Source: an uncultured Candidatus Rokubacteria bacterium
GTDB lineage: Bacteria; Methylomirabilota; Methylomirabilia; Rokubacteriales; DASRDR01
NCBI GenBank assembly: GCA_963812945.1
Contig: CAWEXD010000004.1
Location: 77,178 to 141,177 of the forward strand
DNA: 64,000 nucleotides
Direction of reading: 5' to 3'
The translations under genes and the position numbers were made by a program. The notes beneath the pieces were generated by a model. That model saw only the letters and a program-made list of their open reading frames with translations. It had not been told where the DNA came from and did not search any database. This document shows, one piece after another, positions 19,999-61,755 of the stretch (positions are counted from its first letter, which is position 1; every line of letters starts with the position of its first letter).

Positions 19999-20014
19999 GG
20001 CAAGACGCGTGCCG
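19999..20014 (-). promoter_or_regulatory. sigma-54 promoter (-24/-12) CGGCAC-N5-TTGCC
   Basis: GG-N10-GC spacing exact; predicted TSS about 60 nt upstream of the 19939 ATG. Confidence 0.55.
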
Positions 20015-21805: not shown

Positions 21806-22282
21806 TCAGGCCGAGGGCGCGATCTCCCGGGCTACTCGCTGCAGCAGCTCCATGAACGGCTCGATCCTGAGCGGCTTGACCAGGTGCGCGTCGAATCCCG
21901 TGTCGCCGGCCAGCGCGCGGTCCTCGACTTCGTGATATCCGGTCAGGGCGATCAGGAACATCGGGGCACCTGCCAATCCTTCCCGGATCCGGCGGGCGAC
22001 GGCGTAGCCGTCGAGGCCCGGCAACCCGATGTCGATCACCGCCACGGCCGGGCGGTGGGCCAGCGCGTGCGCGACACCCCCGTCGCCGTCGGCTGCCTCG
22101 CTGACCGCGCACCCCCACATCTCCAGCAGCATCCGGAGAGCCCCGCGCGCGTCGTTGTCATCCTCCACGACGAGGACACGTAGCCGCCCGGCAGCCGACT
22201 CCAAGGCGGCGGAAGCGACGGTGCGCGGATCCTGAGGTGTCAATTCGGACGTCACTCTACGGGGGGCTCCGGTGGAGGTCAA
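21806..22282 (-). CDS. single-domain response regulator (CheY-like receiver)
   Basis: RVLVVEDD...DIGLPGLDG...KP receiver motifs; start uncertain (TTG at 22282 or internal GTG). Confidence 0.6.
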   Translation of the reverse strand: MTSTGAPRRVTSELTPQDPRTVASAALESAAGRLRVLVVEDDNDARGALRMLLEMWGCAVSEAADGDGGVAHALAHRPAVAVIDIGLPGLDGYAVARRIREGLAGAPMFLIALTGYHEVEDRALAGDTGFDAHLVKPLRIEPFMELLQRVAREIAPSA

Positions 22283-22462
22283 GTCTGCGACGGTTCACCC
22301 CCCGCGTTCCCCCCACCCGCGCCAGGCTGACGCGGGGACGACACCGTGACGCGCCGGGCCCGGATGGCCGCCTCGGTTCGGCGGCGGGGCCTTCGCGTGT
22401 CCGCCAGGGTCCGCCGGGTCCACGTGAAGGTGCTCTCGGCCGGCGCCTGGTATGCCGGCCCC

Positions 22463-22478
22463 TGGTATGGAAGTTGCC
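22463..22478 (+). promoter_or_regulatory. sigma-54-like promoter TGGTAT-N5-TTGCC
   Basis: GG-N10-GC; predicted TSS about 22489, 42 nt before the TTG/GGAG start of treZ; three GGTATG repeats in 22448..22490. Confidence 0.4.
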
Positions 22479-22530
22479 CCCCCGGTATGCCGTGCCCAGG
22501 CTCAGTGGCTCAACTCCGGGCTGGAGACGC

Positions 22531-24372
22531 TTGCCCATCGGAGCGGAGGTCGCCCCGGAGGGTGGCGTCCACTTCCGGGTCTGGGCGCCGCACGCCGCGC
22601 GGGTCGAGGTCGATTTGGGCGACCAGCGCGTCGCCCTCGATGCGGAGCGCGGGGGGTACCATGCGGGTCTCGCCCCGGGGGCACAGGCGGGCTCGCGGTA
22701 CGCCTACCGGCTCGATGGGGGCCGAGGGTACCCCGACCCGGCATCCCGCTTTCAGCCCGAGGGCCCGCACGGGCCCTCGGAGGTGATCGATCCCGGTCGA
22801 TTCGCGTGGACCGATGACCGCTGGTCGGGCGTGTCGCGCGAGGGCCAGGTCCTGTACGAGATGCACGTCGGAACGTTCACCGCCGCCGGGACGTGGGAGG
22901 CGGCGGCCCGTGAGCTGCCGGAATTGGGGCGGGCGGGCATCACGGTCGTGGAGGTGATGCCCGTGGCCGACTTCGTGGGCGACTTCGGCTGGGGGTACGA
23001 CGGGGTCGATCTGTTCGCCCCCACGCGGCTCTACGGGCGCCCGGACGACTTCCGGGCCTTCGTCGACCGCGCCCACGCGCTCGGTCTTGGCGTCATCTTG
23101 GACGTCGTCTACAACCACCTCGGCCCGGACGGGAACTACCTTGGCCAGTTCGCTCCCGGCTACTTCAGCACCCGGCACCGGACGGACTGGGGCCAGGCGA
23201 TTAACTTCGACGGGGCTCGCTCGGGGCCGGTGCGGGAGCTCTTCGTCGCCAACGCCGGGTATTGGGTCGAGGAGTTCCACCTGGACGGGCTCCGGCTCGA
23301 TGCCACGCAGGACATCCACGACGACTCCCCCGAGCACGTCATCACCGCCATCGCGCGGCGCGCGCGCGAGCGGGCTGGCCGGCGGACGGTGTGGCTGGTG
23401 GCCGAGAACGAGCCGCAGGACACGAGGCTCGTGCGCTCCGTCGAGGCAGGCGGGTACGGTCTGGACGCCCTCTGGAACGACGACTTCCATCACAGCGCCA
23501 TGGTTGCCCTGACCGGCCGGGCCGAGGCGTACTACAGCGACTACGCCGGGACCCCGCAGGAGCTGATCTCGGCCGTCAAGCGCGGGTACCTCTACCAGGG
23601 CCAGCGCTACGCGTGGCAGGACGAGCCGCGAGGCACGCCGGCGTGGGACGTTCCGCCGGTGGCCTTCGTGAACTTCCTCCAGAACCACGACCAGGTGGCC
23701 AACTCGCTCGCCGGCCTGCGCGGTCATCAGCTGGCCAGCCCCGGGCGATACCGGGCCCTGACGGCCCTCCTCCTGCTGGCCCCCGCCACGCCCATGCTGT
23801 TCCAGGGCCAGGAGTTCGCCGCCTCGAGCCCCTTTCTCTACTTCGCCGACCTGCCGCCCGAGCTGGCGAAGCTGTCTCGGGCCGGACGGGCCGAGTTCCT
23901 CGCCCAGTTTCCAAGCCTCGCAGGGGCCGAGGCCCAGGCAGCCCTGGCCGACCCGGCCAGCCGCCTCACGTTCGAGCGGTCGAAGCTGGATCTGACCGAG
24001 CGCGCGCGCCACGCTGACGCCTATGCCCTGCACGTCGATCTGCTCCGCCTGCGGCGCGAAGACCCCGTCTTCCAGACGCAGGGAGCCGCCGGCGTGGACG
24101 GGGCCGTACTCGGGGCCGAGGCGCTCGCTCTCAGGTTCGTCGACCCCGACCCCGGTCCGCACGATCGGCTGCTCTGTCTCAACCTGGGACGCGACCTGAC
24201 GCTGCCGGCCGTCGCGGAGCCGCTGCTCGCGCCGCCCGAGGGCGCACGGTGGACCCTCCTCTGGTCCAGCGAGGCCGTCCGCTATGGCGGCAGCGGCACG
24301 CCCGAGCTCGACCCGGCCGCGGGCTGGTTCTTGCCCGGCCATGCCGCCCTCGTCTTCGGCGCCACGCGATGA
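22531..24372 (+). CDS. treZ: malto-oligosyltrehalose trehalohydrolase (GH13)
   Basis: N-terminus GVHFRVWAP..VEV pattern and GH13 catalytic regions; TTG at 22531 with GGAG 7 nt upstream, chosen because a sigma-54-like promoter predicts a transcription start near 22489; GTG at 22492 is the alternative. Confidence 0.75.
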   Translation: MPIGAEVAPEGGVHFRVWAPHAARVEVDLGDQRVALDAERGGYHAGLAPGAQAGSRYAYRLDGGRGYPDPASRFQPEGPHGPSEVIDPGRFAWTDDRWSGVSREGQVLYEMHVGTFTAAGTWEAAARELPELGRAGITVVEVMPVADFVGDFGWGYDGVDLFAPTRLYGRPDDFRAFVDRAHALGLGVILDVVYNHLGPDGNYLGQFAPGYFSTRHRTDWGQAINFDGARSGPVRELFVANAGYWVEEFHLDGLRLDATQDIHDDSPEHVITAIARRARERAGRRTVWLVAENEPQDTRLVRSVEAGGYGLDALWNDDFHHSAMVALTGRAEAYYSDYAGTPQELISAVKRGYLYQGQRYAWQDEPRGTPAWDVPPVAFVNFLQNHDQVANSLAGLRGHQLASPGRYRALTALLLLAPATPMLFQGQEFAASSPFLYFADLPPELAKLSRAGRAEFLAQFPSLAGAEAQAALADPASRLTFERSKLDLTERARHADAYALHVDLLRLRREDPVFQTQGAAGVDGAVLGAEALALRFVDPDPGPHDRLLCLNLGRDLTLPAVAEPLLAPPEGARWTLLWSSEAVRYGGSGTPELDPAAGWFLPGHAALVFGATR

Positions 24373-26456
24373 GCGATCCGATCCGCCGCATCGCCTGGCC
24401 CGGCCGCACCGCCCCCGAGGGGACCGGGCTCGGGACTCGGGAATGGCTCGTGACCAACGGGCTCGGCGGCTACGCTTCGGGCACCGTGTCCACCGTCATG
24501 ACTCGGCGCTATCACGGGCTCCTGATCGCGGCCCTGCCCGCCCCGCTCGGGCGGATGCTGATGCTGAGTCACCTGGACGAGCAGCTGTCCCTGCCCGACG
24601 GCACGGTCGCGGCCACGGCGACCGGCTGGGAGGTCAGCGGGGCCGGCAAGCCGATCGAGGTCGCGGATCTCGCCGAGTTCCGACTGGAGATGGGCCTTCC
24701 GGTGTGGCGCTACGAGCTGGGCGAGGTCGCCTTCGAGAAACGGCTCCTCCTCCCCTATCGCCAGAACACGGTTCACGTGAGCTACCGGCTGGTCGAGGGC
24801 TCGGAACCCATTCGGCTGCAGATCCGGCCGGCGGTCCACTTTCGGCCGCACGAGCAGCCCGTGAACGCCTCGCTGGCGGCGCCCTACGCGCTCACGGTCG
24901 TCGACGACCGGTACGAGCTGCAAGGAAGCCCGGGGCTGCCGCGGCTCCGACTTCGGATGCACAGCCCGGCCGCCACCTTTCACGTCGCCTGCGAGACGAT
25001 CCGGCAGGTCCTGTATTCCATGGAGCGCAGCCGCGGCTACGAGGCGACCGGCGATCTCTGGAGCCCCGGCTACTTCGTGGTCACCCTCGGGCCGGAGGGG
25101 CCCGCCACCCTGGTGGCGTCCACCGAGCCCTGGGAAGCCATGGACGCGCTCGATCCGGAGACCGCGCTGCGGGCCGAGCTGACCCGGCGGCGCCGCCTCC
25201 GGGCGGTGGCCCACCCGCACGCGCGCACGGGCACGGCGGCCGAGCTCGTCCTGGCCGCCGACCAGTTCGTCGTGGCGCCGGCCGGCCGGGTGGCGGACAC
25301 CGCAATCACTCGCGCCACGGGCGACGAGGCGCGCACGATCATCGCGGGCTACCACTGGTTCACGGACTGGGGGCGCGACACGATGATCGCCCTCGAGGGC
25401 CTCACCCTCGTGACGGGCCGTCACGTCGAGGCCGGCTACATCCTGCGCACGTTCGCGCTCTACGTGCGGGACGGCCTGATCCCGAACATGTTCCCCGAGG
25501 GCACGCGCGAAGGGCTCTACCACACGGCGGACGCCACGTTCTGGTACTTCCACGCGATCGATCGCTACCTCCGCGCGACCGGCGATCGCGAGACGCTCCG
25601 CCTGCTTCTTCCGACGCTGCTCGAGATCGTCGAGCGCCACGTGCGGGGCACCCGGTTCGGCATCGCCGTGGATCCGGCGGACGGCCTCCTGCGGCAGGGC
25701 GCGCCCGGCTATCAGCTCACGTGGATGGACGCCAAGGTCGAGGACTGGGTCGTGACCCCGCGGCGCGGGAAAGCGGTGGAGATCAACGCGCTCTGGTACA
25801 ACGCCCTCCGCCTCCTCGAGGGGTGGGTCCGCGAGGAACGCGGGATCGAGGCGTCGGCGGCCCTGGCCGAGCGGGCGGACCAGGTGCGCGCCGCCTTCAA
25901 CGCGCGCTTCTGGCATGCAGGGGGCGGCCATCTCTACGACGTGGTCGACGGCGAGGGCGGCGACGACGCCGCCTGCCGGCCCAACCAGCTCTTCGCGATC
26001 TCGCTGCGGCATCCGGTCCTGGACGAGGCGCGATGGACGTCGGTCATGACGGTGGTCCAGGAGCGCCTCCTCACGCCGGTGGGGCTTCGCACCCTCGCGC
26101 CGGACCATCCCGACTACAAGGCGACGTATGACGGTGATCTCCGGGCCCGCGACGCCGCCTACCATCAGGGCACGGTCTGGCCCTGGCTGATCGGCCCGTT
26201 CGTGGAGGCGTGGCTCCGTGTCCACCCCACGGACCGCGCGAGAACGCGAGCGCTTTTGGAGCGGTTCACGTCGCATCTCGACGAGGCCTGCGTGGGCAGC
26301 GTCAGCGAGATCTTCGACGCCGAGGTCCCCTTCACGCCCCGCGGGTGCATCTCCCAGGGCTGGAGCGTGGCCGAGGTGCTCCGCGCCCTCATCCTCACGG
26401 CCGAATCGGGGCCACCGGATCCGCCGGCGCCGCCCCGGGAGGGAGGACAGCCATGA
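24369..26456 (+). CDS. glycogen debranching enzyme, amylo-alpha-1,6-glucosidase type (GDE N-domain plus (alpha/alpha)6 catalytic domain)
   Basis: ATG overlaps treZ stop (ATGA); GYHWFTDWGRDT and other GDE_C signatures. Confidence 0.8.
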   Translation: MSDPIRRIAWPGRTAPEGTGLGTREWLVTNGLGGYASGTVSTVMTRRYHGLLIAALPAPLGRMLMLSHLDEQLSLPDGTVAATATGWEVSGAGKPIEVADLAEFRLEMGLPVWRYELGEVAFEKRLLLPYRQNTVHVSYRLVEGSEPIRLQIRPAVHFRPHEQPVNASLAAPYALTVVDDRYELQGSPGLPRLRLRMHSPAATFHVACETIRQVLYSMERSRGYEATGDLWSPGYFVVTLGPEGPATLVASTEPWEAMDALDPETALRAELTRRRRLRAVAHPHARTGTAAELVLAADQFVVAPAGRVADTAITRATGDEARTIIAGYHWFTDWGRDTMIALEGLTLVTGRHVEAGYILRTFALYVRDGLIPNMFPEGTREGLYHTADATFWYFHAIDRYLRATGDRETLRLLLPTLLEIVERHVRGTRFGIAVDPADGLLRQGAPGYQLTWMDAKVEDWVVTPRRGKAVEINALWYNALRLLEGWVREERGIEASAALAERADQVRAAFNARFWHAGGGHLYDVVDGEGGDDAACRPNQLFAISLRHPVLDEARWTSVMTVVQERLLTPVGLRTLAPDHPDYKATYDGDLRARDAAYHQGTVWPWLIGPFVEAWLRVHPTDRARTRALLERFTSHLDEACVGSVSEIFDAEVPFTPRGCISQGWSVAEVLRALILTAESGPPDPPAPPREGGQP

Positions 26457-38265: not shown

Positions 38266-38281
38266 TGGCACACGACTTGCG
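38266..38281 (+). promoter_or_regulatory. sigma-54 promoter TGGCAC-N5-TTGCG
   Basis: predicted TSS about 38291, 33 nt before the DUF883 ATG with GGAGGAAGG SD. Confidence 0.6.
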
Positions 38282-48593: not shown

Positions 48594-49025
48594 CTAGTCG
48601 GCCGATCGCGAGACGATCCCGTCGATGGCGTCGCGGAGCTGTCCCAGCCTGAACGGCTTCTCCAGATAGCTCGCGGCGCCCAGCCGGAGCGCGCTGGTCG
48701 CCACCTGACGGCCGCCGAACGCTGTCACGAGCACGACAGGGACTTTCGGGAACTCGCGGCGCAGGATCGGCAAGAGCTCGATGCCCGTGAGTCCCGGCAT
48801 CTCCTTGTCCAGGACGATGAGGTCGAACGGTGTCCCGCGCAGCGTCTCCACCACGTGGGTGCCCCGGTCCAGCTCCGTCACCTCATGCCCGTCGAATTCG
48901 AGCGTTCGCCGGAGGAGCGCTCGCATCTCGGCGTCGTCGTCGACGATCAGCACCCGGATGGGGCGCGGACGGCCTTCGACGTCACCCGCGGTCACGGCCG
49001 TACGGGCAAGAGACACGACACTCAT
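48594..49025 (-). CDS. single-domain response regulator (receiver)
   Basis: VLIVDDD...DLIVLDKEMPGLTG...KP; immediately downstream of the NtrC-type gene. Confidence 0.75.
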   Translation of the reverse strand: MSVVSLARTAVTAGDVEGRPRPIRVLIVDDDAEMRALLRRTLEFDGHEVTELDRGTHVVETLRGTPFDLIVLDKEMPGLTGIELLPILRREFPKVPVVLVTAFGGRQVATSALRLGAASYLEKPFRLGQLRDAIDGIVSRSAD

Positions 49026-49055
49026 GCCCTCGAATACAGCAAGGACCGTGCCAGC

Positions 49056-50420
49056 TCATGGCTGCTGGTCCGTCAGCCCGGGCCCCACCCGAAGCATGTT
49101 GGCCTGCATCCGCTGCAGCGTCCGCACGCTGATTCCGAGGATGCGGGCCGCGGCTCGCTTGTCGCCGCGGACCTCGTCAAGAATCCGACGGATGTACTGG
49201 CTCTCCACCTCGGCCAGGGACGGGCGCACGCCCAGCTCGCTACTGGACCCCGGGGTGAACTCGATGCGGAGGTCGTCCCGAGTAATGACGCGGCCCTTCG
49301 TCAGCGTGGCCGCCCGCTCGACGACGTTCTCGAGCTCGCGGACGTTACCCGGCCAGCTGTGCTCGTGGAGCCACTTGACGGCCTCCTCGTCGAAGCCGTC
49401 GATCTCCTTCCCCATCCCGGCGGCCGCGCGCTTCAGGAAGTGCTCGGCCAGGAGCGGGATGTCCTCCGGCCGCTCCCGGAGGCTGGGGATCCGGATCGGG
49501 AGGACGGCCAGCCGATAGTAGAGATCCTCGCGGAACTTCCCCTGACGCACGAGGGCGGGCAGGTCCCGGTTGGTGGCGCTGATGAGACGGAGGTCCACCT
49601 TGATCTCCTCGTTGCCTCCGACGGGCCGCACGACGCGGTCCTGGAGGGCACGAAGGAGCTTCACCTGGAGGGACTGGGGCATCTCGGCGATCTCGTCGAG
49701 CAAGAGCGTCCCGCCCTCGGCTTCCACGAAGAGGCCCCGCCGCTTCCGATCGGCGCCCGTGAAGGCTCCCCTCTCGTGTCCGAACAGCTCGGACTCCAGG
49801 AGCGTCTCGGGAATGGCCGCACAGTTGACGGCGACGAACGCCCCCTCGCGGCGGCCGCTGTGCCAGTGGATGGCCCGCGAGACCAGCTCCTTGCCCGACC
49901 CGCTGTCCCCCAAGAGCAGCACCGCCGCGTCGGTGTCCGCCACCACGCGGATCTGCTCGAACACGGACTGCATCGCCTTCGAGCGGCCGATGATGTTGTC
50001 GAAGCTGTAGCGGCGCTCGACCTCGGCCCGGAGCCGGCGGTTCTCCTCACGCAGGCGCTGGTCCTCGACGGCCCGCTTGACGACCAGGGACAGCTCCGGA
50101 AGCTTGAAGGGCTTCATCAGGTAGTCGTACGCACCCTGGCGCATCGCATCGATGGCGCTCTCGAGGCTCCCGAACGCCGTCATGAGGATGACGCGGGCGC
50201 GCGGCTGGACCTTCTGCGACTCGCGCAGCACGGCCAGGCCGTCCACGGGCTCCATGACGAGGTCGGTGAGGACGACCGAGTACTCCTCGCGTCCCAGCGC
50301 CGTCTGGGCGTCCTCCCCGCCGGTGACCGTCGTCACCGACCAGCCCTCTGTCTCGAGATGGCGCCGGAGCAGCGCCACCATGTCCGCATCGTTGTCCACG
50401 ACGAGAATTCGGGATTTCAT
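49056..50420 (-). CDS. sigma-54-dependent transcriptional activator, NtrC family (REC plus AAA+ plus Fis-type HTH)
   Basis: receiver D-box, Walker A GDSGSGKE, GAFTGA sigma-54 contact loop (ERGAFTGA), C-terminal HTH; ATG overlaps HK stop. Confidence 0.9.
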   Translation of the reverse strand: MKSRILVVDNDADMVALLRRHLETEGWSVTTVTGGEDAQTALGREEYSVVLTDLVMEPVDGLAVLRESQKVQPRARVILMTAFGSLESAIDAMRQGAYDYLMKPFKLPELSLVVKRAVEDQRLREENRRLRAEVERRYSFDNIIGRSKAMQSVFEQIRVVADTDAAVLLLGDSGSGKELVSRAIHWHSGRREGAFVAVNCAAIPETLLESELFGHERGAFTGADRKRRGLFVEAEGGTLLLDEIAEMPQSLQVKLLRALQDRVVRPVGGNEEIKVDLRLISATNRDLPALVRQGKFREDLYYRLAVLPIRIPSLRERPEDIPLLAEHFLKRAAAGMGKEIDGFDEEAVKWLHEHSWPGNVRELENVVERAATLTKGRVITRDDLRIEFTPGSSSELGVRPSLAEVESQYIRRILDEVRGDKRAAARILGISVRTLQRMQANMLRVGPGLTDQQP

Positions 50421-51898
50421 GGCTGCTCCCTCCCTGCTTCCGAGCTGGCTTCGGGCAGCCAGACGGTGAAGGTGGTGCCCTCGCCGGGCATGCTCGCCAC
50501 CTGGATCTCGCTGCCGTTGGACCGGACAAGGTCGCGACAGATCGCGAGGCCGAGACCGGATCCCTCGCGAGCGGGCTTGGTGCTGAAGAAGGGGTCGAAG
50601 ATCTTGGGAAGGACATCCGCGGGGATCCCGGATCCGCTGTCTCGAACCTCGATGGCGACCCCCGGCCGTCCGTCGTCCAGCCGGTGCGCCCCGGCGACCT
50701 CGACCCGGCCGCCGGCCGGCGTCGCCTCGATGGCGTTCGTGAGCAGGTTGATCAGCACCTGCTGGAGATGGCCGGGGTCGACGAGCACCTCCGGAAGGTC
50801 GCGCGGGAGCCTGACCGCCAGGGTGACGCCGCGGGTCCGGGCGAAATGCTGGAGCAACGGTCGGAGGCCCTCGGTGACCGACCCGGGCGCGGTGGCCGTC
50901 CGCTCGGGCTCGCGCTGGCGGAAGGGATCCAGGGCCGCGCGGATCATCTTGGATATCCGGTCGATCTGGGCGATGACGACGTCGAGGTCCTCCCGGAGCG
51001 GTGAGTCCTTGGGCACGGCGCGCAGCATCAGCTCGGCGCGGCCGGCAATGATGTTGAGCGGCGTGCCCACCTCGTGCGCGATGCTCGAGCAGAGCTTGCC
51101 GGCGATCGCGAGGCTTTCCGTCTGCCGCAGGCGGCGCATCAGCTCGAGCGACCGGTCCGACTCGGCCTCCACCCGCTGGCGGGCTTCCTCCAGCCGTTCG
51201 GTCATCCGGTTGAAAGCCGTCGCGACCTGACCCAGCTCGTCGCGGCTCCGGACCGGCACCGGCGCCGGGGCCGCGCCGGACCCGACACGCTCGATCCCCT
51301 GCATCAGGTCGGCGACCGGCCGGAAGACGAGGCGCTGGAGGGCCATCCAGATGATCAGGCCCAGGAGCACGACGAGCACGCTGCCCCGCAGCGCGATCTT
51401 GTAGTTCTCGCTGAGCAGGGCCGCCTCCAGGCGGCCCGCGACGAAGGCGACTTCGAGCACTCCGTCGTCGGAGCCGGACGACGAACGGACCGGGAGAAGC
51501 ACGCTGTGCAGCCGGATGCCCGCGCTCTGGTGCTCGACGACGGCCGGCTGGCCCGTCTCCCGGACCCCCCGATGCCGATCGAGGGACACTCCAGGATCGC
51601 CCGCGAGGAGGTTCGCGTCGACCCGCCGCGCCAGGTTCCGGTCCAGCAATCGGATGCGAACGATCTCGGTCTGCTTGACGACCAGGTCGTCGGCCAGCCG
51701 CTTGACGTCGGCCAGCGTGCCGCCCCGGAGCGCGTTCTCCACCGCAAGCCGGATGGCCGTGCTCGTGACGTTGACGCGCAACTCGAACTCCGCCCGTCGC
51801 TGTGCGCGCTCGTCTCTCATGAGGACGTACGTAAACACCGCGACGACCAGGACCATCGGCACGAGCAGGAGTAGGACTAGGCGAAGTCGCAGTCCCAC
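50417..51898 (-). CDS. sensor histidine kinase (2 TM, HAMP, HisKA, HATPase)
   Basis: H-box SIAHEVGTPLN, N-box LLTNAIEA, G-boxes DSGSGI, GSGLGLAI. Confidence 0.85.
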   Translation of the reverse strand: MGLRLRLVLLLLVPMVLVVAVFTYVLMRDERAQRRAEFELRVNVTSTAIRLAVENALRGGTLADVKRLADDLVVKQTEIVRIRLLDRNLARRVDANLLAGDPGVSLDRHRGVRETGQPAVVEHQSAGIRLHSVLLPVRSSSGSDDGVLEVAFVAGRLEAALLSENYKIALRGSVLVVLLGLIIWMALQRLVFRPVADLMQGIERVGSGAAPAPVPVRSRDELGQVATAFNRMTERLEEARQRVEAESDRSLELMRRLRQTESLAIAGKLCSSIAHEVGTPLNIIAGRAELMLRAVPKDSPLREDLDVVIAQIDRISKMIRAALDPFRQREPERTATAPGSVTEGLRPLLQHFARTRGVTLAVRLPRDLPEVLVDPGHLQQVLINLLTNAIEATPAGGRVEVAGAHRLDDGRPGVAIEVRDSGSGIPADVLPKIFDPFFSTKPAREGSGLGLAICRDLVRSNGSEIQVASMPGEGTTFTVWLPEASSEAGREQP

Positions 51899-52535: not shown

Positions 52536-52802
52536 ATGAAGCGTTCTGGTGTCACGTGTGAAGGACGGGGTGCACGGTCCGTGCCGGCGGGGGGTCTCGG
52601 GCCCCCGGCCGGCCACGGGGCCGCGCGTCCCCCCGGGCCCGTGATCGAGCCCGATCCACGTCTCCCAGCCAAGGGTTCCGAGGTCCGCGTGACGCGATGC
52701 CCCGTCCACGGCATCGCCTACGACGGCGAGCGCGAGATCTGTCCCGAGTGCGCCAAGGGGGAGCCTCGCGACGAGGCGACCTCACGCTCCTCGCGTCCAT
52801 GA
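52536..52802 (+). CDS. possible small zinc-ribbon protein (CPVHG...CPEC)
   Basis: in-frame ATG inside a longer GC-artefact ORF; weak SD; low confidence. Confidence 0.3.
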   Translation: MKRSGVTCEGRGARSVPAGGLGPPAGHGAARPPGPVIEPDPRLPAKGSEVRVTRCPVHGIAYDGEREICPECAKGEPRDEATSRSSRP

Positions 52803-52863
52803 CGTTCTGATTCCGGGCGGCCTATCCCGAGCGCGCCGGGCCCACGATCTTGGCGTCGGCGCC

Positions 52864-52895
52864 GTCACGTTGTCGTCGCCGCGACATGATGTCGC
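52864..52895. promoter_or_regulatory. dyad UAS-like element CGTCACGTTGTC-N8-GACATGATGTCG
   Basis: 12-8-12 architecture related to 38169 and 45078; centre about 114 nt (82 plus three turns) upstream of the candidate promoter at 52992. Confidence 0.3.
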
Positions 52896-52991: not shown

Positions 52992-53007
52992 TGGAATCGC
53001 CGTTGCA
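52992..53007 (+). promoter_or_regulatory. sigma-54-like promoter candidate TGGAAT-N5-TTGCA
   Basis: perfect -12 box, degenerate -24 box; about 200 nt upstream of the glgX ATG; dyad UAS-like element 114 nt further upstream. Confidence 0.3.
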
Positions 53008-53213
53008 TTCCCCTCCGGCATGACACCCCTGCTCACCACGCGCGGACATCATCTCTCCGGCACCGGCACGACGCGGACGCGCGCCCGATCGCTCGGAATC
53101 CCATCGAGTGGATCGGCCGCGCGCACTTCCGGTCGCGAGCTCTGGGCCGTCGTCCTGGCCGGGGGATCAGGCGATCACGTCACCGGGACGCCGGACAACC
53201 CTGGCTCGGGGAC

Positions 53214-58342
<5,129 letters not shown>

Positions 58343-58392
58343 ACCGATCGTGCGGGGCTGGCGCCGCCAGCTCCTGACAGGAGGACGACATC

Positions 58393-58779
58393 ATGCCAGC
58401 CAGCTCGGCGGGGTTTCACGAGGCGGATGAGGCGCTGTCGCAGACGACGAAGGACATGCACCGGGCCATCGTCAGCCTGATGGAGGAGCTCGAGGCCATC
58501 GACTGGTACCAGCAGCGCATCGACGCCGCGGGCGACGACGAGCTGAAGGAGATCCTTCGTCACAACCGGGACGAGGAGAAGGAGCACGCCGCGATGGTGC
58601 TCGAATGGATCCGGCGCCGAGACCCGAGCTTCGACGAGGTGCTGCGGGCGTTCCTGTTCAAGGAGCAGCCCATCACCGCCCTCGAGCCGGGCTCGCCGAC
58701 GGGCAGCGGCCGGCGCGGCGCCGGCGGAGGCGCGAGCCAACCGTTCGTGAGCGTGGGATCGCTGAGAGGAGCCCAATGA
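58393..58779 (+). CDS. encapsulated ferritin-like protein (EncFtn cargo) with C-terminal encapsulin-targeting peptide
   Basis: HRAIVSLMEELEAIDWYQQRIDA..D.ELK.IL.HNRDEEKEHAAMVLEWIRR matches the EncFtn metal-binding helix motifs; C-terminal ..SVGSLRGAQ resembles family-1 cargo-loading peptides; SD CAGGAGG. Confidence 0.8.
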   Translation: MPASSAGFHEADEALSQTTKDMHRAIVSLMEELEAIDWYQQRIDAAGDDELKEILRHNRDEEKEHAAMVLEWIRRRDPSFDEVLRAFLFKEQPITALEPGSPTGSGRRGAGGGASQPFVSVGSLRGAQ

Positions 58780-59591
58780 TGGACATCCTGAGACGCGACA
58801 GCGCCCAGCTGTCTGACCGGGTCTGGAAGGAGCTGGACGAGGCGGCGGCCTCGGCGGCCAAGAACGTCATGACGGCGCGCCGGATCGCCACGTTCGACGG
58901 GCCCCGCGGTTGGGACTACATCGCGGCGCCCCTCGGCACCATGAAGGCCTGCCAGACGCAGGAGGGCAAGGCGATCGTCTGCGTGCCCGAGATCGCGCTG
59001 CTGGCGCAGCTCCGGGCCGACTTCAGCCTGCCCTGGTCGGCGGTCGAGGCCTTCGAGCGGGGCGGGCCAGCCCTCGACACCGAAACCGCGGAAACCGCCG
59101 CGCGCGAGGTCGGGCTCGCGGAGGATCGCCTCGCGTACTCCGGCCAACCGGTCGGGACCGGCTTCCTCGAGGATCCCGAGTCGCCGCGTCTCAAGCTCGG
59201 CGACTGGTCGGACCCGGCGCGGGTGATCGCCGACCTGGTGCGCGCGGTGGAGATGCTGGACCGGCTGACCGTGCCCGGGCCGTACGAGGCGGTCCTGTCG
59301 CCCGACCGGTACTACGCGTACCTGACGGCGGCGAACCGCGGCTACCCGGTGCCACGCCACACGAAGAACATCATCGCCGAGGTGCATCGGTCCCTCGTGA
59401 TGCAGGACGGCGGCGCCCTCTTCTCGATGCGCGGCGGCGATTTCGTGCTGACCGTCGGAGGCGATCTCGCGGTCGGCTATCGGTCGCACGACCGTGACGC
59501 CCTGCATCTGTTCTGCGTCGAAACCCTCGCGCCCCAGACCCTCAGCCCCGACGCGGTGTGCGTCCTGGAGGGCGCCGGTTCGCTCGCCTGA
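58776..59591 (+). CDS. family 1 encapsulin shell protein (HK97 fold)
   Basis: ATG overlaps EncFtn stop (ATGA), SD GAGAGGAG; about 271 aa with the conserved encapsulin N-terminus MMDILRRDSA.LSD..W..LD and C-terminal region. Confidence 0.8.
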   Translation: MMDILRRDSAQLSDRVWKELDEAAASAAKNVMTARRIATFDGPRGWDYIAAPLGTMKACQTQEGKAIVCVPEIALLAQLRADFSLPWSAVEAFERGGPALDTETAETAAREVGLAEDRLAYSGQPVGTGFLEDPESPRLKLGDWSDPARVIADLVRAVEMLDRLTVPGPYEAVLSPDRYYAYLTAANRGYPVPRHTKNIIAEVHRSLVMQDGGALFSMRGGDFVLTVGGDLAVGYRSHDRDALHLFCVETLAPQTLSPDAVCVLEGAGSLA

Positions 59592-59612
59592 CCTGCGAGA
59601 CTTCTTCGCGCG

Positions 59613-59624
59613 CGACACCGTGTC
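59613..59624. promoter_or_regulatory. UAS element GACACCGTGTCG (palindromic)
   Basis: identical to the right arm of 45078..45109; centre 81 nt upstream of -24 GG of the promoter at 59698. Confidence 0.4.
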
Positions 59625-59697
59625 GATCCGACGACGCGATGGCGTCCGGCCCCTGCGCGTTCCGCGGACATCGCGCCTCCTCTAGCAGCGAGTGGCG

Positions 59698-59713
59698 TGG
59701 CACACGCCTTGCT
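59698..59713 (+). promoter_or_regulatory. sigma-54 promoter TGGCAC-N5-TTGCT
   Basis: consensus match; predicted TSS about 59724. Confidence 0.6.
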
Positions 59714-59725
59714 CCACTGAAGGGC

Positions 59726-59971
59726 ATGGCACGCGCGAAGAGGGCAATCCCGAAGAGCGCAAAGAACGTGAAGCCGATGCTCGCGCCGGCCCCGCGTTCA
59801 CCGAAGGCCCCGGCGCGAGCCCGATCGAAGGATGGGTCGCCGACGGGCCAGAAGGCGCGTCGACGGCGCAGCGCCTCGGGCGCGGTCCGGAAGGACACGA
59901 TGATCCTCGCGACCGATCACGGGCCGCGAGTGGCCTGGAGCGCCGCCCGGCCGGTGTTCCAGAAACGCTAG
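59726..59971 (+). CDS. hypothetical Lys/Arg/Pro-rich basic protein (81 aa)
   Basis: ATG coincides with the predicted TSS of the sigma-54 promoter at 59698..59713 (would be leaderless); the promoter may instead serve the M48 peptidase gene. Confidence 0.3.
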   Translation: MARAKRAIPKSAKNVKPMLAPAPRSPKAPARARSKDGSPTGQKARRRRSASGAVRKDTMILATDHGPRVAWSAARPVFQKR

Positions 59972-59980
59972 GAGGCGACC

Positions 59981-60664
59981 ATGCGGAGCGCACGAATGCA
60001 CGGCCTCGTCCTCGCCCTGGCCGGGGTCCTCGTCTCCGGTTGCGCCGGGCTGCCCCTGCCCGACGGATCGGGCTCACCGCAGGAGCAGGGCTCCGGGCCG
60101 CGCCTCGCCACCGAGCCCGTCAGCCCCCAGGACGCGGCGCGGCTCCGCCGGATCGTCGAGCCGCTGGCGCGGGCCGCCGACAAGCCCCCGCAGCGCGTCT
60201 CGGTCGGCATCCTCTCCGACAAGAGCATCAATGCCGCCAACGCCGGCGGGGGCGAGTTCTACGTGACGCGGGGCCTCCTGAATAGCGCGACGGACGAGCA
60301 GCTCCTGGCGATCATGGCCCACGAGTTCGCGCACAACGACCTCGGCCACGTGGCGAAGGCGCAGGCCGTCAATGCCGGCGTCGGAATCGGCGCGGCCATC
60401 CTGGAGCAGGTCATCCCCCAGGCGGCGATCATCACGCCCATCGCGGGGACCCTGATCACTCGCGCGCACAGCCGGTCGGAGGAGCTGGAGGCCGACCGCC
60501 ACGCCGTGACGCTGCTGAAGCGCGTGGGATCGTCGAAGCGGGCGCTGGAGAACACGCTGGCCTGGCTGGCGCGCACCTCTGGCGGCGGCGAGGGCGGCGG
60601 CTGGTTCGCCACGCACCCCGGGACCAACGACCGCATCCAGGCTCTGCGGCAGCTGCCCTCCTGA
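59981..60664 (+). CDS. M48-family zinc metallopeptidase lipoprotein
   Basis: SD AGGAGG; lipobox LVSGCAG; HEFAHNDLGH (HExxH) plus downstream E. Confidence 0.75.
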   Translation: MRSARMHGLVLALAGVLVSGCAGLPLPDGSGSPQEQGSGPRLATEPVSPQDAARLRRIVEPLARAADKPPQRVSVGILSDKSINAANAGGGEFYVTRGLLNSATDEQLLAIMAHEFAHNDLGHVAKAQAVNAGVGIGAAILEQVIPQAAIITPIAGTLITRAHSRSEELEADRHAVTLLKRVGSSKRALENTLAWLARTSGGGEGGGWFATHPGTNDRIQALRQLPS

Positions 60665-60697
60665 CGGTTCGCCCACCAGGCGTCCCCCGACCGGTCG

Positions 60698-61228
60698 ATG
60701 GCAGCGCCTGAGAGGGGGAGGGCCGGCAACACGGCCGGCCCTCCCGCGCCCGGCGGGATCTCGCCGGCCCTCCGCGAGTGGATCGCCCAGCTCTTCACGC
60801 GGGTCGAGGACGTCGTCTACATCGGCCTGGGCGCGCTGCTGGCGGCGAGCGCCGTGGTGCTCCTGCTCGACGGCGTCCTGGAGTTCGGGCGCAGTCTCCT
60901 GGCCGCCACGATGCCAGGACGGGTCATCGATCTGCTCGACCGGATCCTGCTGATCCTGATGATCGTGGAGGTGCTGTACACCGTTCAGGTCTCGTTCCGG
61001 GAGCACACGCTCGCGCCCGAGCCGTTCCTGATCGTCGGGCTGATCGCCGTCACCCGCCGGATCCTCGTCCTGACGGCGGAGCTCGCCGAGCTGGCCCAGG
61101 CCGGCGGACCGGGCTTCCTCCACGCGATCCTGGAGCTCGGCCTCCTGACGCTGATGGTGCTGGTGCTCGTGGTTGCCCTGGTCCTCTTGCGGAGGCGTTC
61201 GAGCCAGGCGGTCGCCGAGCGGGCGTGA
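60698..61228 (+). CDS. PsiE-like phosphate-starvation-inducible membrane protein
   Basis: four TM helices with PsiE-type MIVEVLYTV core; start uncertain. Confidence 0.5.
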   Translation: MAAPERGRAGNTAGPPAPGGISPALREWIAQLFTRVEDVVYIGLGALLAASAVVLLLDGVLEFGRSLLAATMPGRVIDLLDRILLILMIVEVLYTVQVSFREHTLAPEPFLIVGLIAVTRRILVLTAELAELAQAGGPGFLHAILELGLLTLMVLVLVVALVLLRRRSSQAVAERA

Positions 61229-61277
61229 AGAGTCCAGCGAGGATAGCAACCCCGGAAGGAGCCCTGCCAGCCTGACG

Positions 61278-61565
61278 TCAGCGCGACGCGGTGTCGTGAC
61301 GGGACGCGGCCGGGGACGAGGTACTCGAGGGCGGATCCTGCGTGGACGGCGGGCTGGGCGGTTTCCGGCGCCGGGCGCTACGGCGCGCGGCGATGACCGT
61401 CGCGTACCCGGCGATCAGCGCCAGGAAGACGACCGGAATCAGCCCCGGCCACAGATGTCGATCGCGCTCCGCGAGTTCCGCCGGGTTCGGGTCTCCTGTA
61501 ACTGGCTGGGCGTACAGTGCCGTTGCCGCGAGGAGCAAACAATACGCCCCAAGGGCCAGGGCCAC
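61278..61565 (-). CDS. possible small two-TM membrane protein
   Basis: two hydrophobic helices within ORF 61278..61769; GTG start guessed; GC3 atypically low; weak call. Confidence 0.2.
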   Translation of the reverse strand: MALALGAYCLLLAATALYAQPVTGDPNPAELAERDRHLWPGLIPVVFLALIAGYATVIAARRSARRRKPPSPPSTQDPPSSTSSPAASRHDTASR

Positions 61566-61739
61566 CAGCGCGGCGGCGTGGCGGACGGTCCGAAGATCAC
61601 GGAGCGGTGAGCGTGGGGTGCCCGGTCGCGGGGGCACGCGCCCCGCGCGCCAAGCGCGGCTCGCTCCGAACCGGCGACGCCCCCTGATCGTTCGCTCCAC
61701 GATCTCAGTCGGTGCAAGGCACATACCCGGACGTGCGGG

Positions 61740-61755
61740 TGGCACCTTGCTTGCT
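61740..61755 (+). promoter_or_regulatory. sigma-54 promoter TGGCAC-N5-TTGCT
   Basis: consensus; TSS about 61766, then AAGGAGG and the ATG at 61783. Confidence 0.6.

Follow-up and report, generated by a model that had tools for sequence, protein, structure and literature searches.

A 64,000-nucleotide (nt) stretch of a contig from an uncultured Candidatus Rokubacteria bacterium (Methylomirabilota), hereafter the window, carries between positions 58393 and 60664 the genes of an encapsulated ferritin (EncFtn) and of a Family-1 encapsulin shell, followed by two further open reading frames (ORFs). The explanation that best accounts for the observations overall, and that we regard as likely, is that a classical Family-1 EncFtn nanocompartment is expressed as the tail of a sigma-54-controlled trehalose operon. 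All ORFs of the region lie on the plus strand and comprise one of 128 amino acids (aa), one of 270 or 271 aa and, after a non-coding stretch of 134 nt, one of 81 aa and one of 227 aa. The window was compared with syntenic relatives (loci L001 to L008), so that counts over nine genomes refer to the window together with these eight, and with more distant loci carrying encFtn-enc or shell homologues (L009 to L013); in the closest public genomes the shell is 83–91% identical, and a search turned up no identical record. The regulon was surveyed in the 64-kb window plus 17-kb flanks. An Rfam scan of the whole window returned no matches.

Cargo and Shell of the Nanocompartment

The nanocompartment is encoded by two genes that share a single base:

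58393–58779, plus strand: EncFtn cargo, 128 aa, identified by hidden Markov models (HMMs) and alignment with R. rubrum EncFtn; targeting peptide FVSVGSLRGAQ encoded at 58744–58776
58779–59591, plus strand: Family-1 encapsulin shell, 270 aa (271 aa if the start is at 58776), identified by HMMs and alignment to solved shells

The cargo protein matches PF22277 (E 1e-40, 137.8 bits for a cut-off of 27) and TIGR04535, the model for the "encapsulin-associated ferritin-like protein" (137.5 bits, cut-off 125), and its residues 3–105 align without any gap with the EncFtn of R. rubrum (E 1.3e-37), so that the residue numbering of the two proteins is identical. Crystallography and mutagenesis of the R. 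rubrum protein assigned Glu32, Glu62 and His65 as ligands of the di-iron ferroxidase center, with Tyr39 nearby, and Glu31 and Glu34 to an entry site (PMC5012862); every one of these residues (E31, E32, E34, Y39, E62 and H65) is present in the window protein. By homology to the EncFtn of R. rubrum and H. ochraceum, the cargo is expected to be decameric, with di-iron centers at the dimer interfaces that would oxidize Fe2+. Its C-terminus consists of a Gly-rich linker followed by FVSVGSLRGAQ, a GSLK/R-type localization sequence comparable to the GSLK-type motif described for EncFtn (PMC5012862), and ten relatives keep this tail as (F/S)VTVGSLRG(A/G)(R/Q). The original prediction, made from the letters alone, had proposed an EncFtn with the iron-site pattern of Glu and His residues, a targeting tail ending in SVGSLRGAQ and an HK97-fold shell of Family 1. 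The cargo is borne out by the curated HMMs, the six residues and the alignment with R. rubrum that had been suggested as a check, the targeting tail by its presence and conservation, and the Family-1 shell by the matches described below, from which its HK97 fold is predicted. Candidates for a second cargo in the window were rejected, the other GSL-like tails being only the shell's own GAGSLA and those of two frames with non-coding-like codon usage (GC content at third codon positions of 0.70).

The shell protein matches the model NF041155 ("family 1 encapsulin nanocompartment shell protein") over positions 1–261 of 261 with 200.4 bits (cut-off 100), and PF04454 (Linocin_M18) with an E of 5e-58 (196.8 bits, cut-off 24.3). 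It has no match in PHROG. Its residues 2–268 align end to end with 36 solved encapsulin shells, which argues that all the shell domains (N-helix, P-domain, E-loop and A-domain) are present. The best-scoring solved shell is that of T. maritima (E 4.6e-35, residues 2–268, with insertions and deletions of just 1–2 residues); the T = 1 shells of R. rubrum and H. ochraceum match nearly as well (~1e-34 and ~1e-32), and far weaker matches were obtained for the T = 3 EncA of M. xanthus (~1e-14) and for the weakest of the set, including chain 6nj8 (~1e-10). Since all its nearest relatives with solved structures are T = 1 shells, the particle is most likely a 60-mer of T = 1 geometry and about 24 nm. 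Self-assembly of the shell and loading of the cargo are predicted by the same homology: the GSLR peptide of EncFtn would dock the cargo inside the shell, and the ferric mineral would be stored in the shell lumen.

At the encFtn/enc junction, CAATGATGGAC, the window reads ATGATG, so that the ATGA overlap originally proposed as the sign of translational coupling is literally present; most relatives, however, read CTGATG or GTGATG, and the conserved arrangement is thus TGATG, in which the enc start at 58779 shares one base with the encFtn stop. The Leu-Arg-Gly codons of the targeting peptide, with AGA for Arg, supply the Shine-Dalgarno sequence of the shell gene, AGAGGAG (within 58760–58781), which is kept in most relatives. 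As the ribosome-binding site lies in these codons, docking motif and translational coupling signal are specified by one and the same stretch of DNA. In L001 (L001:7620-8813) encFtn runs into enc as a fused ORF of 398 aa, for which we suspect an indel error of the assembly; a protein of 421 aa with EncFtn plus Linocin domains (P0073) may be a similar artefact or a real fusion.

The Probable Trehalose Operon and Its Putative Promoter

Upstream of the pair lies a set of trehalose and glycogen genes with its own promoter elements, including a pair of upstream activating sequences (UAS):

52863–52894: UAS pair CGTCACGTTGTCG and CGACATGATGTCG, with starts 19 nt apart, found by motif; the same pair occurs in all of L001 to L008
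52992–53006, plus strand: sigma-54-type −24/−12 element TGGAATCGCCGTTGC, with GG and GC retained, conserved in relatives
53020–53217, plus strand: 65-aa NTP_transferase remnant, first ORF of the operon, with the N-terminal motif kept and intact counterparts in relatives
53214–55361, plus strand: glgX, glycogen debranching enzyme (TIGR02100, 1078 bits, cut-off 641)
55358–58342, plus strand: treY, malto-oligosyltrehalose synthase (TIGR02401, 956 bits, cut-off 499)

The order NTP-transferase remnant, glgX, treY, encFtn, enc is tightly packed. The remnant and glgX overlap by ATGA at 53214–53217, as do glgX and treY at 55358–55361, encFtn and enc share TGATG, and a gap of 50 nt separates treY from encFtn; the gene order is kept in L001 to L007. 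A scan from position 58000 to 61500 yielded neither a sigma-70-like promoter nor a terminator on the plus strand, the single terminator-like site being on the minus strand inside the Lys/Arg-rich ORF described further below. Because of this tight packing, and because no sigma-70-like promoter or terminator is recognizable in or near the treY–encFtn gap, we infer that encFtn and enc would be the last two cistrons of the glgX-treY transcript. The claim that the nanocompartment is flanked by trehalose genes thus needs to be recast: treY and glgX, identified by curated HMMs, do adjoin it, and the pair appears to sit at the 3' end of their operon.

The promoter elements are conserved as well. Both UAS sites, 99 and 118 nt before the −24 element when measured from the end of each site (109 and 128 nt from the core start), recur with their 19-nt spacing and a −24/−12 element in nine of nine genomes, the latter reading TGGAAY-N5-TTGCAT in eight of them and TGGCGT-N5-TTGCAT in L003. 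In all genomes but L002, whose first ATG comes 17 nt after the TTGC, an ATG or GTG follows it after 12–13 nt (eight of nine), and in the window the ATG at 53020 lies 13 nt after TGGAATCGCCGTTGC. In sigma-54 promoters the GC of the −12 element lies about 12 nt before the transcription start site, and this geometry, by placing the start within 2–3 nt of the ATG, suggests that the operon message is leaderless. A mechanism can be proposed in which an NtrC-type protein would bind the two G(A/T)CA-N3-TG(T/A)C sites 19 nt apart at 52863–52894 and activate the sigma-54 promoter at 52992–53006, and a leaderless transcript beginning near the ATG at 53020 would cover the NTP-transferase remnant, glgX, treY, encFtn and enc.

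The relatives carry an intact NTP_transferase gene of 341–386 aa in the place of the remnant, the window having about 835 nt less DNA there, and the counterpart in L010 matches PF00483. While the enzyme itself is lost from the organism of the window, the promoter survives, as does the reading-frame linkage through the ATGA shared with glgX. A treZ-like gene (CBM48, alpha-amylase and DUF3459 domains) and a GDE-type amylo-1,6-glucosidase gene are found at 22237–26456, and the TreY/TreZ pathway is thus split over two loci, the treZ-like gene being 32 kb from treY; the called treZ ORF has a UAS-like site, CGACACCGTGACG, at its 5' end (22339). Between the gene of a WXXGXW lipoprotein and the operon UAS there is also a short plus-strand frame (~52650–52802, ending in …RCPVHGIAYDGEREICPECAKGEPRDEATSRSSRP) which looks zinc-ribbon-like and has similar sequence in L002 and L003.

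A Proposed Sigma-54 Regulon and Its Candidate Activator

A second promoter with the same kind of enhancer site follows enc, and the genes of a histidine kinase and an NtrC-type activator lie on the other side of the operon:

59613–59644: UAS, made of the perfect palindrome CGACACCGTGTCG (59613–59625) and a degenerate site 19 nt later (59632–59644)
59698–59712, plus strand: consensus sigma-54 −24/−12 element TGGCACACGCCTTGC, an exact TGGCAC-N5-TTGC, conserved in L001 to L008
49056–50420, minus strand: NtrC-family sigma-54 activator with receiver, AAA+ and Fis-type helix-turn-helix (HTH) domains (PF00158 with E 9.5e-71, PF00072, PF02954)
50417–51898, minus strand: partner histidine kinase (HAMP-HisKA-HATPase), whose N-terminus lies at the left edge of L001 to L007 and which is complete in L008

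The second promoter begins 107 nt after enc and its palindrome lies 73 nt before the −24 element; both copies of the UAS stand out as conserved blocks within an otherwise poorly conserved spacer. A consensus sigma-54 promoter with a UAS had been predicted at this place, and the exact element, the palindrome and their conservation in eight relatives bear this out.

These two promoters belong to a larger set. The window contains four exact sigma-54 elements and eleven with at most one mismatch where 2.1 are expected, a number that none of 100 shuffles reached. Elements were located on the minus strand at 20000, 21651, 30105, 34354, 38091 and 49039, and on the plus strand at 38266, 43405, 45176, 52050, 52992, 59698 and 61740. 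The UAS motif CGWCACCSTGTCG is likewise enriched about 10-fold, with 16 matches at no more than one mismatch for 1.5 expected, and its perfect core GACA-N3-TGTC occurs four times (30223, 45098, 52883 and 59614) for 0.78 expected, each time 73–100 nt upstream of a −24/−12 element. The motif is found 60–130 nt upstream of at least seven sigma-54 sites, at least five of them besides those at 52992 and 59698, and tandem sites with the 19-nt spacing precede the promoters at 20000 (minus), 38091 (minus)/38266 (plus), 45176 (plus) and 52992 (plus). The UAS-bearing promoters would drive the genes of a membrane peptide with DUF1328, a DUF883-like protein, a highly charged, hydrophilic and disordered (hydrophilin-like) protein and a PCC-domain protein; no UAS was detected at the sigma-54 promoters that precede genes for a PRC-barrel/BON protein (OsmY-like), the WXXGXW lipoprotein, a response regulator with a single domain and a Gly-zipper membrane protein. 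Apart from the response regulator, these are small proteins of stress type.

The genes of the kinase, the NtrC-type activator and a receiver protein occupy 48594–51898 on the minus strand, with the activator 2.6 kb upstream of the operon, and the protein encoded at 49056–50420 is a candidate for the enhancer-binding protein that recognizes the UAS motif. The kinase is in the same place in L001 to L008; the activator was seen only in L008, where it is 93% identical, compared with 83% for the shell and about 76% for TreY.

The original prediction had suggested that iron sequestration belongs to the same stress programme as the neighboring genes. This idea is better supported than could be known at that time, since a conserved promoter of sigma-54 type, bearing the same UAS motif, precedes the encFtn-enc operon itself, and at the level of sequence there is good support for a joint control of iron sequestration, trehalose synthesis and envelope or stress proteins.

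Three of the promoters (52992–53022, 59698–59728 and, on the minus strand, 49053–49023) have a start codon exactly 13 nt after TTGC and no Shine-Dalgarno sequence, a spacing from which leaderless or near-leaderless mRNAs would follow. The 13-nt spacing is kept in relatives; the other promoters of the window have leaders of 28–127 nt with clear AGGAGG sites. Upstream of the Gly-zipper gene, L001 to L006 and L008 have two overlapping divergent sigma-54 elements 6–16 nt apart (at ~10.8–12.7 kb; L002:10993/11000). The minus-strand partner of this divergent pair is degenerate in the window (61711–61754, GGGTATGTGCCTTGC) and would drive the gene of a small protein with two transmembrane segments at ~61278–61560 on the minus strand.

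Weighing Co-Transcription against Independent Expression

Several observations weigh against the operon interpretation as a whole. The −24 element of the operon reads TGGAAT and not TGGCAC, and no rpoN gene lies within the window. Co-transcription across the treY–encFtn gap is drawn solely from the spacing and from the absence of recognizable signals, and this gap is the only junction of the operon at which the genes do not overlap and holds a conserved palindrome. The AlphaFold2 model of the shell, computed from a shallow alignment of 20 sequences of 61–89% identity, was unusable (mean predicted local distance difference test score, pLDDT, of 40; predicted template-modelling score, pTM, of 0.33), and because of this failure the HK97 fold rests on the sequence homology to the 36 solved shells. 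Three shell homologues of 65–70% identity have unrelated neighborhoods without trehalose genes. In L008 a deletion has taken out encFtn entirely, along with most of treY and the start of the shell gene; together with the broken first gene of the window's operon, it indicates that the module is dispensable in some lineages.

The L008 event itself (L008:7856-8120, on a contig of 986 kb) is a clean deletion of ~3.3 kb which joins treY at codon ~170 to the shell gene at codon ~54 and spans a short stretch of similarity (ACCATGAAGGCCTG), with the M48 peptidase gene and the genes downstream of it intact. It is either a natural knock-out or a collapse of the assembly.

The palindrome is at the center of the most serious alternative, namely that encFtn-enc is an independently regulated cassette placed after treY, driven by an unrecognized promoter in the 3' end of treY or in the gap, with the palindrome as the operator of an iron or redox repressor; the compartment would then respond to iron or oxidative stress and not to the sigma-54 programme. 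The element concerned is the following:

58354–58374: imperfect palindrome GGGGCTGGCG-C-CGCCAGCTCC (10+1+10, one mismatch), in the 50-nt treY–encFtn gap

We consider this alternative unlikely. In its favor, treY–encFtn is the one junction with a gap, distant encFtn-enc pairs occur elsewhere as stand-alone two-gene units, and the position of the palindrome is conserved: the relatives retain a hairpin there, with a few pairs changed on both sides (compensatory changes). The covariation term of RNAalifold, however, is positive and hence unfavorable. Between 58000 and 58400 there is neither a sigma-70-like nor a sigma-54-like element, and the gap holds little besides the palindrome and a Shine-Dalgarno sequence. 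The palindrome is made of G and C only and does not resemble the boxes of Fur or PerR. It folds no better than shuffled sequences do (z = 0.06), four palindromes of like quality lie inside the adjacent coding DNA, and no T-run follows it. The 13-bp palindrome which had been pointed out after treY, ctggcgccgccag, does exist, at 58358–58370 (6+1+6) within the larger one, and proves statistically unremarkable for these same reasons; an intercistronic stem-loop is possible. Finally, the stand-alone pair of L010 has a consensus sigma-54 promoter of its own.

This last locus also helps to delimit the trehalose link. In L010 (59% shell identity) the element TGGCACCTGCCTTGC lies 95 nt upstream of encFtn, and this promoter stands back to back with that of a divergent NTP_transferase-glgX unit; in L009 (64% shell identity) encFtn-enc is two genes from GDE-treZ; L012, one of the three loci of 65–70% shell identity, has an activator 6 kb away. 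Since the homologues of 65–70% identity have unrelated neighbors, the trehalose link is specific to a clade and not general to EncFtn systems. A general encapsulin–trehalose link was therefore rejected; the association holds only for the clade of the window plus L010 and L009.

The Downstream Transcription Unit

Behind the second UAS-bearing promoter lie three further genes:

59726–59971, plus strand: Lys/Arg-rich ORF of 81 aa with 22 Lys and Arg, leaderless geometry, lineage-restricted, predicted disordered
59981–60664, plus strand: M48 zinc metallopeptidase lipoprotein of 227 aa (PF01435, HEFAH, lipobox LVSGC)
60698–61228, plus strand: PsiE-family membrane protein (PF06146, E 1.4e-10, and synteny)

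The Lys/Arg-rich ORF and the M48 lipoprotein peptidase that had been described after the promoter are thus both substantiated, the former by its composition and the latter by its Pfam match, its HEFAH motif and its lipobox. The M48 protein matches PF01435 with an E of 1e-27 (97.4 bits, cut-off 20.3) and has 3C37 as its closest solved structure; we left it outside the LoiP, HtpX and BepA subfamilies because it falls below the cut-offs of those equivalogs. The TAG stop of the Lys/Arg-rich ORF overlaps the Shine-Dalgarno sequence of the M48 gene (TAGGAGG), and PsiE probably shares the transcription unit with M48. The promoter would drive, in this order, a basic 81-aa protein predicted to be disordered, the M48 lipoprotein peptidase and PsiE.

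The pattern of substitution argues that the Lys/Arg-rich ORF is a real gene: its indels are multiples of three, third positions changed 207 times versus 149 and 149 times for first and second positions, and its C-terminus keeps the block VRKDT-ILQTD-GPR-AWSA--P-F-KR. It is present in the window, L002, L005 and L008, is truncated in L006 and is missing in L003 and L007. Two metagenome proteins complete the family, the only homologues among 5.8 billion proteins. In L001 and L004 the ORF is frame-shifted, for which indel errors of the assemblies are suspected, and in L007 the M48 ORF itself starts 13 nt after TTGC. The protein has no match in PDB, Pfam, NCBIfam or PHROG. An AlphaFold2 model from a three-sequence alignment gave no secondary structure beyond one helix of 4 residues (pTM 0.14), which is consistent with disorder.

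One could suppose that the Lys/Arg-rich protein and M48 are accessories of the nanocompartment, acting in the turnover of shell or cargo for iron release or in the nucleation of the mineral. Their genes are adjacent to enc in eight genomes and carry the same type of UAS, the interval from enc to their promoter has no detected terminator, and some types of Family-1 operons are known to carry conserved accessory genes that are not cargo (PMC8346489). We nevertheless find such a role quite improbable. The lipoprotein signal of M48 predicts a place outside the cytoplasm, encapsulins being cytoplasmic; neither gene stands beside the more distant encFtn-enc pairs of L009 to L013; the Lys/Arg-rich ORF is missing in L003 and L007, yet enc and M48 are intact there; and its product has no targeting-peptide motif. 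The two genes are a separate transcription unit, regulon neighbors and not parts of the nanocompartment. The weakest alternative, that the shell gene is the relic of a prophage major capsid protein, draws on the HK97 fold that encapsulins and phage capsids have in common (PMC11664910) and was rejected with near certainty, given the full-length match of the shell to the curated Family-1 equivalog model, the dedicated cargo with its targeting peptide directly upstream, the metabolic and stress neighbors, and the absence of any PHROG match, the shell's included, or phage-type Pfam domain among the genes examined.

Further downstream, a UAS-like palindrome, CGACACCGCGTCG, lies at 61284–61296 between the convergent ends of PsiE and of a small minus-strand membrane-protein gene, ~445 nt from the nearest sigma-54 element, and similar ones occupy the same place in L003, L004 and L006. 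It may be a distant enhancer, a terminator-like element or a product of chance.

Comparison with Known Systems

The pair itself closely resembles those of R. rubrum (5DA5, 33BF, 9RY4) and H. ochraceum (7OE2, 7ODW), with which it shares the two-gene order of cargo then shell, an EncFtn of ~125–140 aa with identical E32, E62, H65, Y39, E31 and E34, a Gly/Ser-rich linker with a targeting peptide of the type xVGSLR/K, and a shell of 265–280 aa without fusion domains. It differs from them in its place at the end of an NTP-transferase-glgX-treY operon, whose promoter is of sigma-54 type and has an enhancer site, and in its host, an uncultured Rokubacterium in which the system is known from its genes alone. 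The system of T. maritima (3DKT, with Flp as cargo) likewise combines a T = 1 Family-1 shell, the T = 1 state being predicted here, with a ferritin-like cargo that docks through a peptide at its C-terminus; many substitutions in the shell alignment and a different operon context set it apart. Together, Flp and EncFtn are the second-largest class of Family-1 cargo, spread over 25 phyla (PMC8346489).

The regulatory elements follow the pattern of NtrC-type sigma-54 regulons: GG-N10-GC elements, tandem palindromic sites ~70–130 nt upstream, and an adjacent pair of a histidine kinase and a receiver-AAA+-HTH activator. What distinguishes the window is the set of targets, which comprises trehalose synthesis, an encapsulin and envelope or hydrophilic stress proteins, and the three promoters that imply leaderless messages. 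As in treX(glgX)-treY-treZ operons, glgX precedes treY with overlapping stop and start; unlike in these operons, encFtn-enc comes after treY, and the treZ-like gene is 32 kb away beside the GDE-type debranching enzyme.

Full-text literature searches returned no paper that connects trehalose genes with encapsulins or with encapsulated ferritin, and none that connects sigma-54 with encapsulated ferritin. The papers found mention encapsulins of Rokubacteria only in passing and contain no earlier report of an encapsulin with an enhancer-dependent promoter of this type or in such a pathway operon. The nanocompartment is orthodox and mechanistically nothing new; it is only its genomic and regulatory context that is unreported in the literature searched.

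Implications for the Biology of Encapsulins and Rokubacteria

How and when bacteria deploy their encapsulins is poorly known, and the window offers a concrete and testable prediction of co-transcription. It also illustrates, in compact and well-conserved form, a sigma-54 regulon of an uncultured phylum from soil, with promoters that imply leaderless mRNAs, even if the unculturable host limits the immediate impact. Within this framework, the nanocompartment and trehalose synthesis would together form one branch of a protective response under sigma-54 control, with desiccation, starvation or dormancy as plausible occasions, in which locking up redox-active iron would limit Fenton damage and trehalose would protect macromolecules. 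A more ambitious reading, which we advance tentatively and with slightly less than even confidence, is that in one clade of Rokubacteria the encapsulin has been recruited into a leaderless sigma-54 trehalose operon, and that a single enhancer-binding protein also switches about ten envelope, hydrophilin-like and membrane stress units, the whole forming a dedicated desiccation or dormancy regulon. If this is true, the regulon couples the production of a compatible solute to the sequestration of Fenton-active iron.

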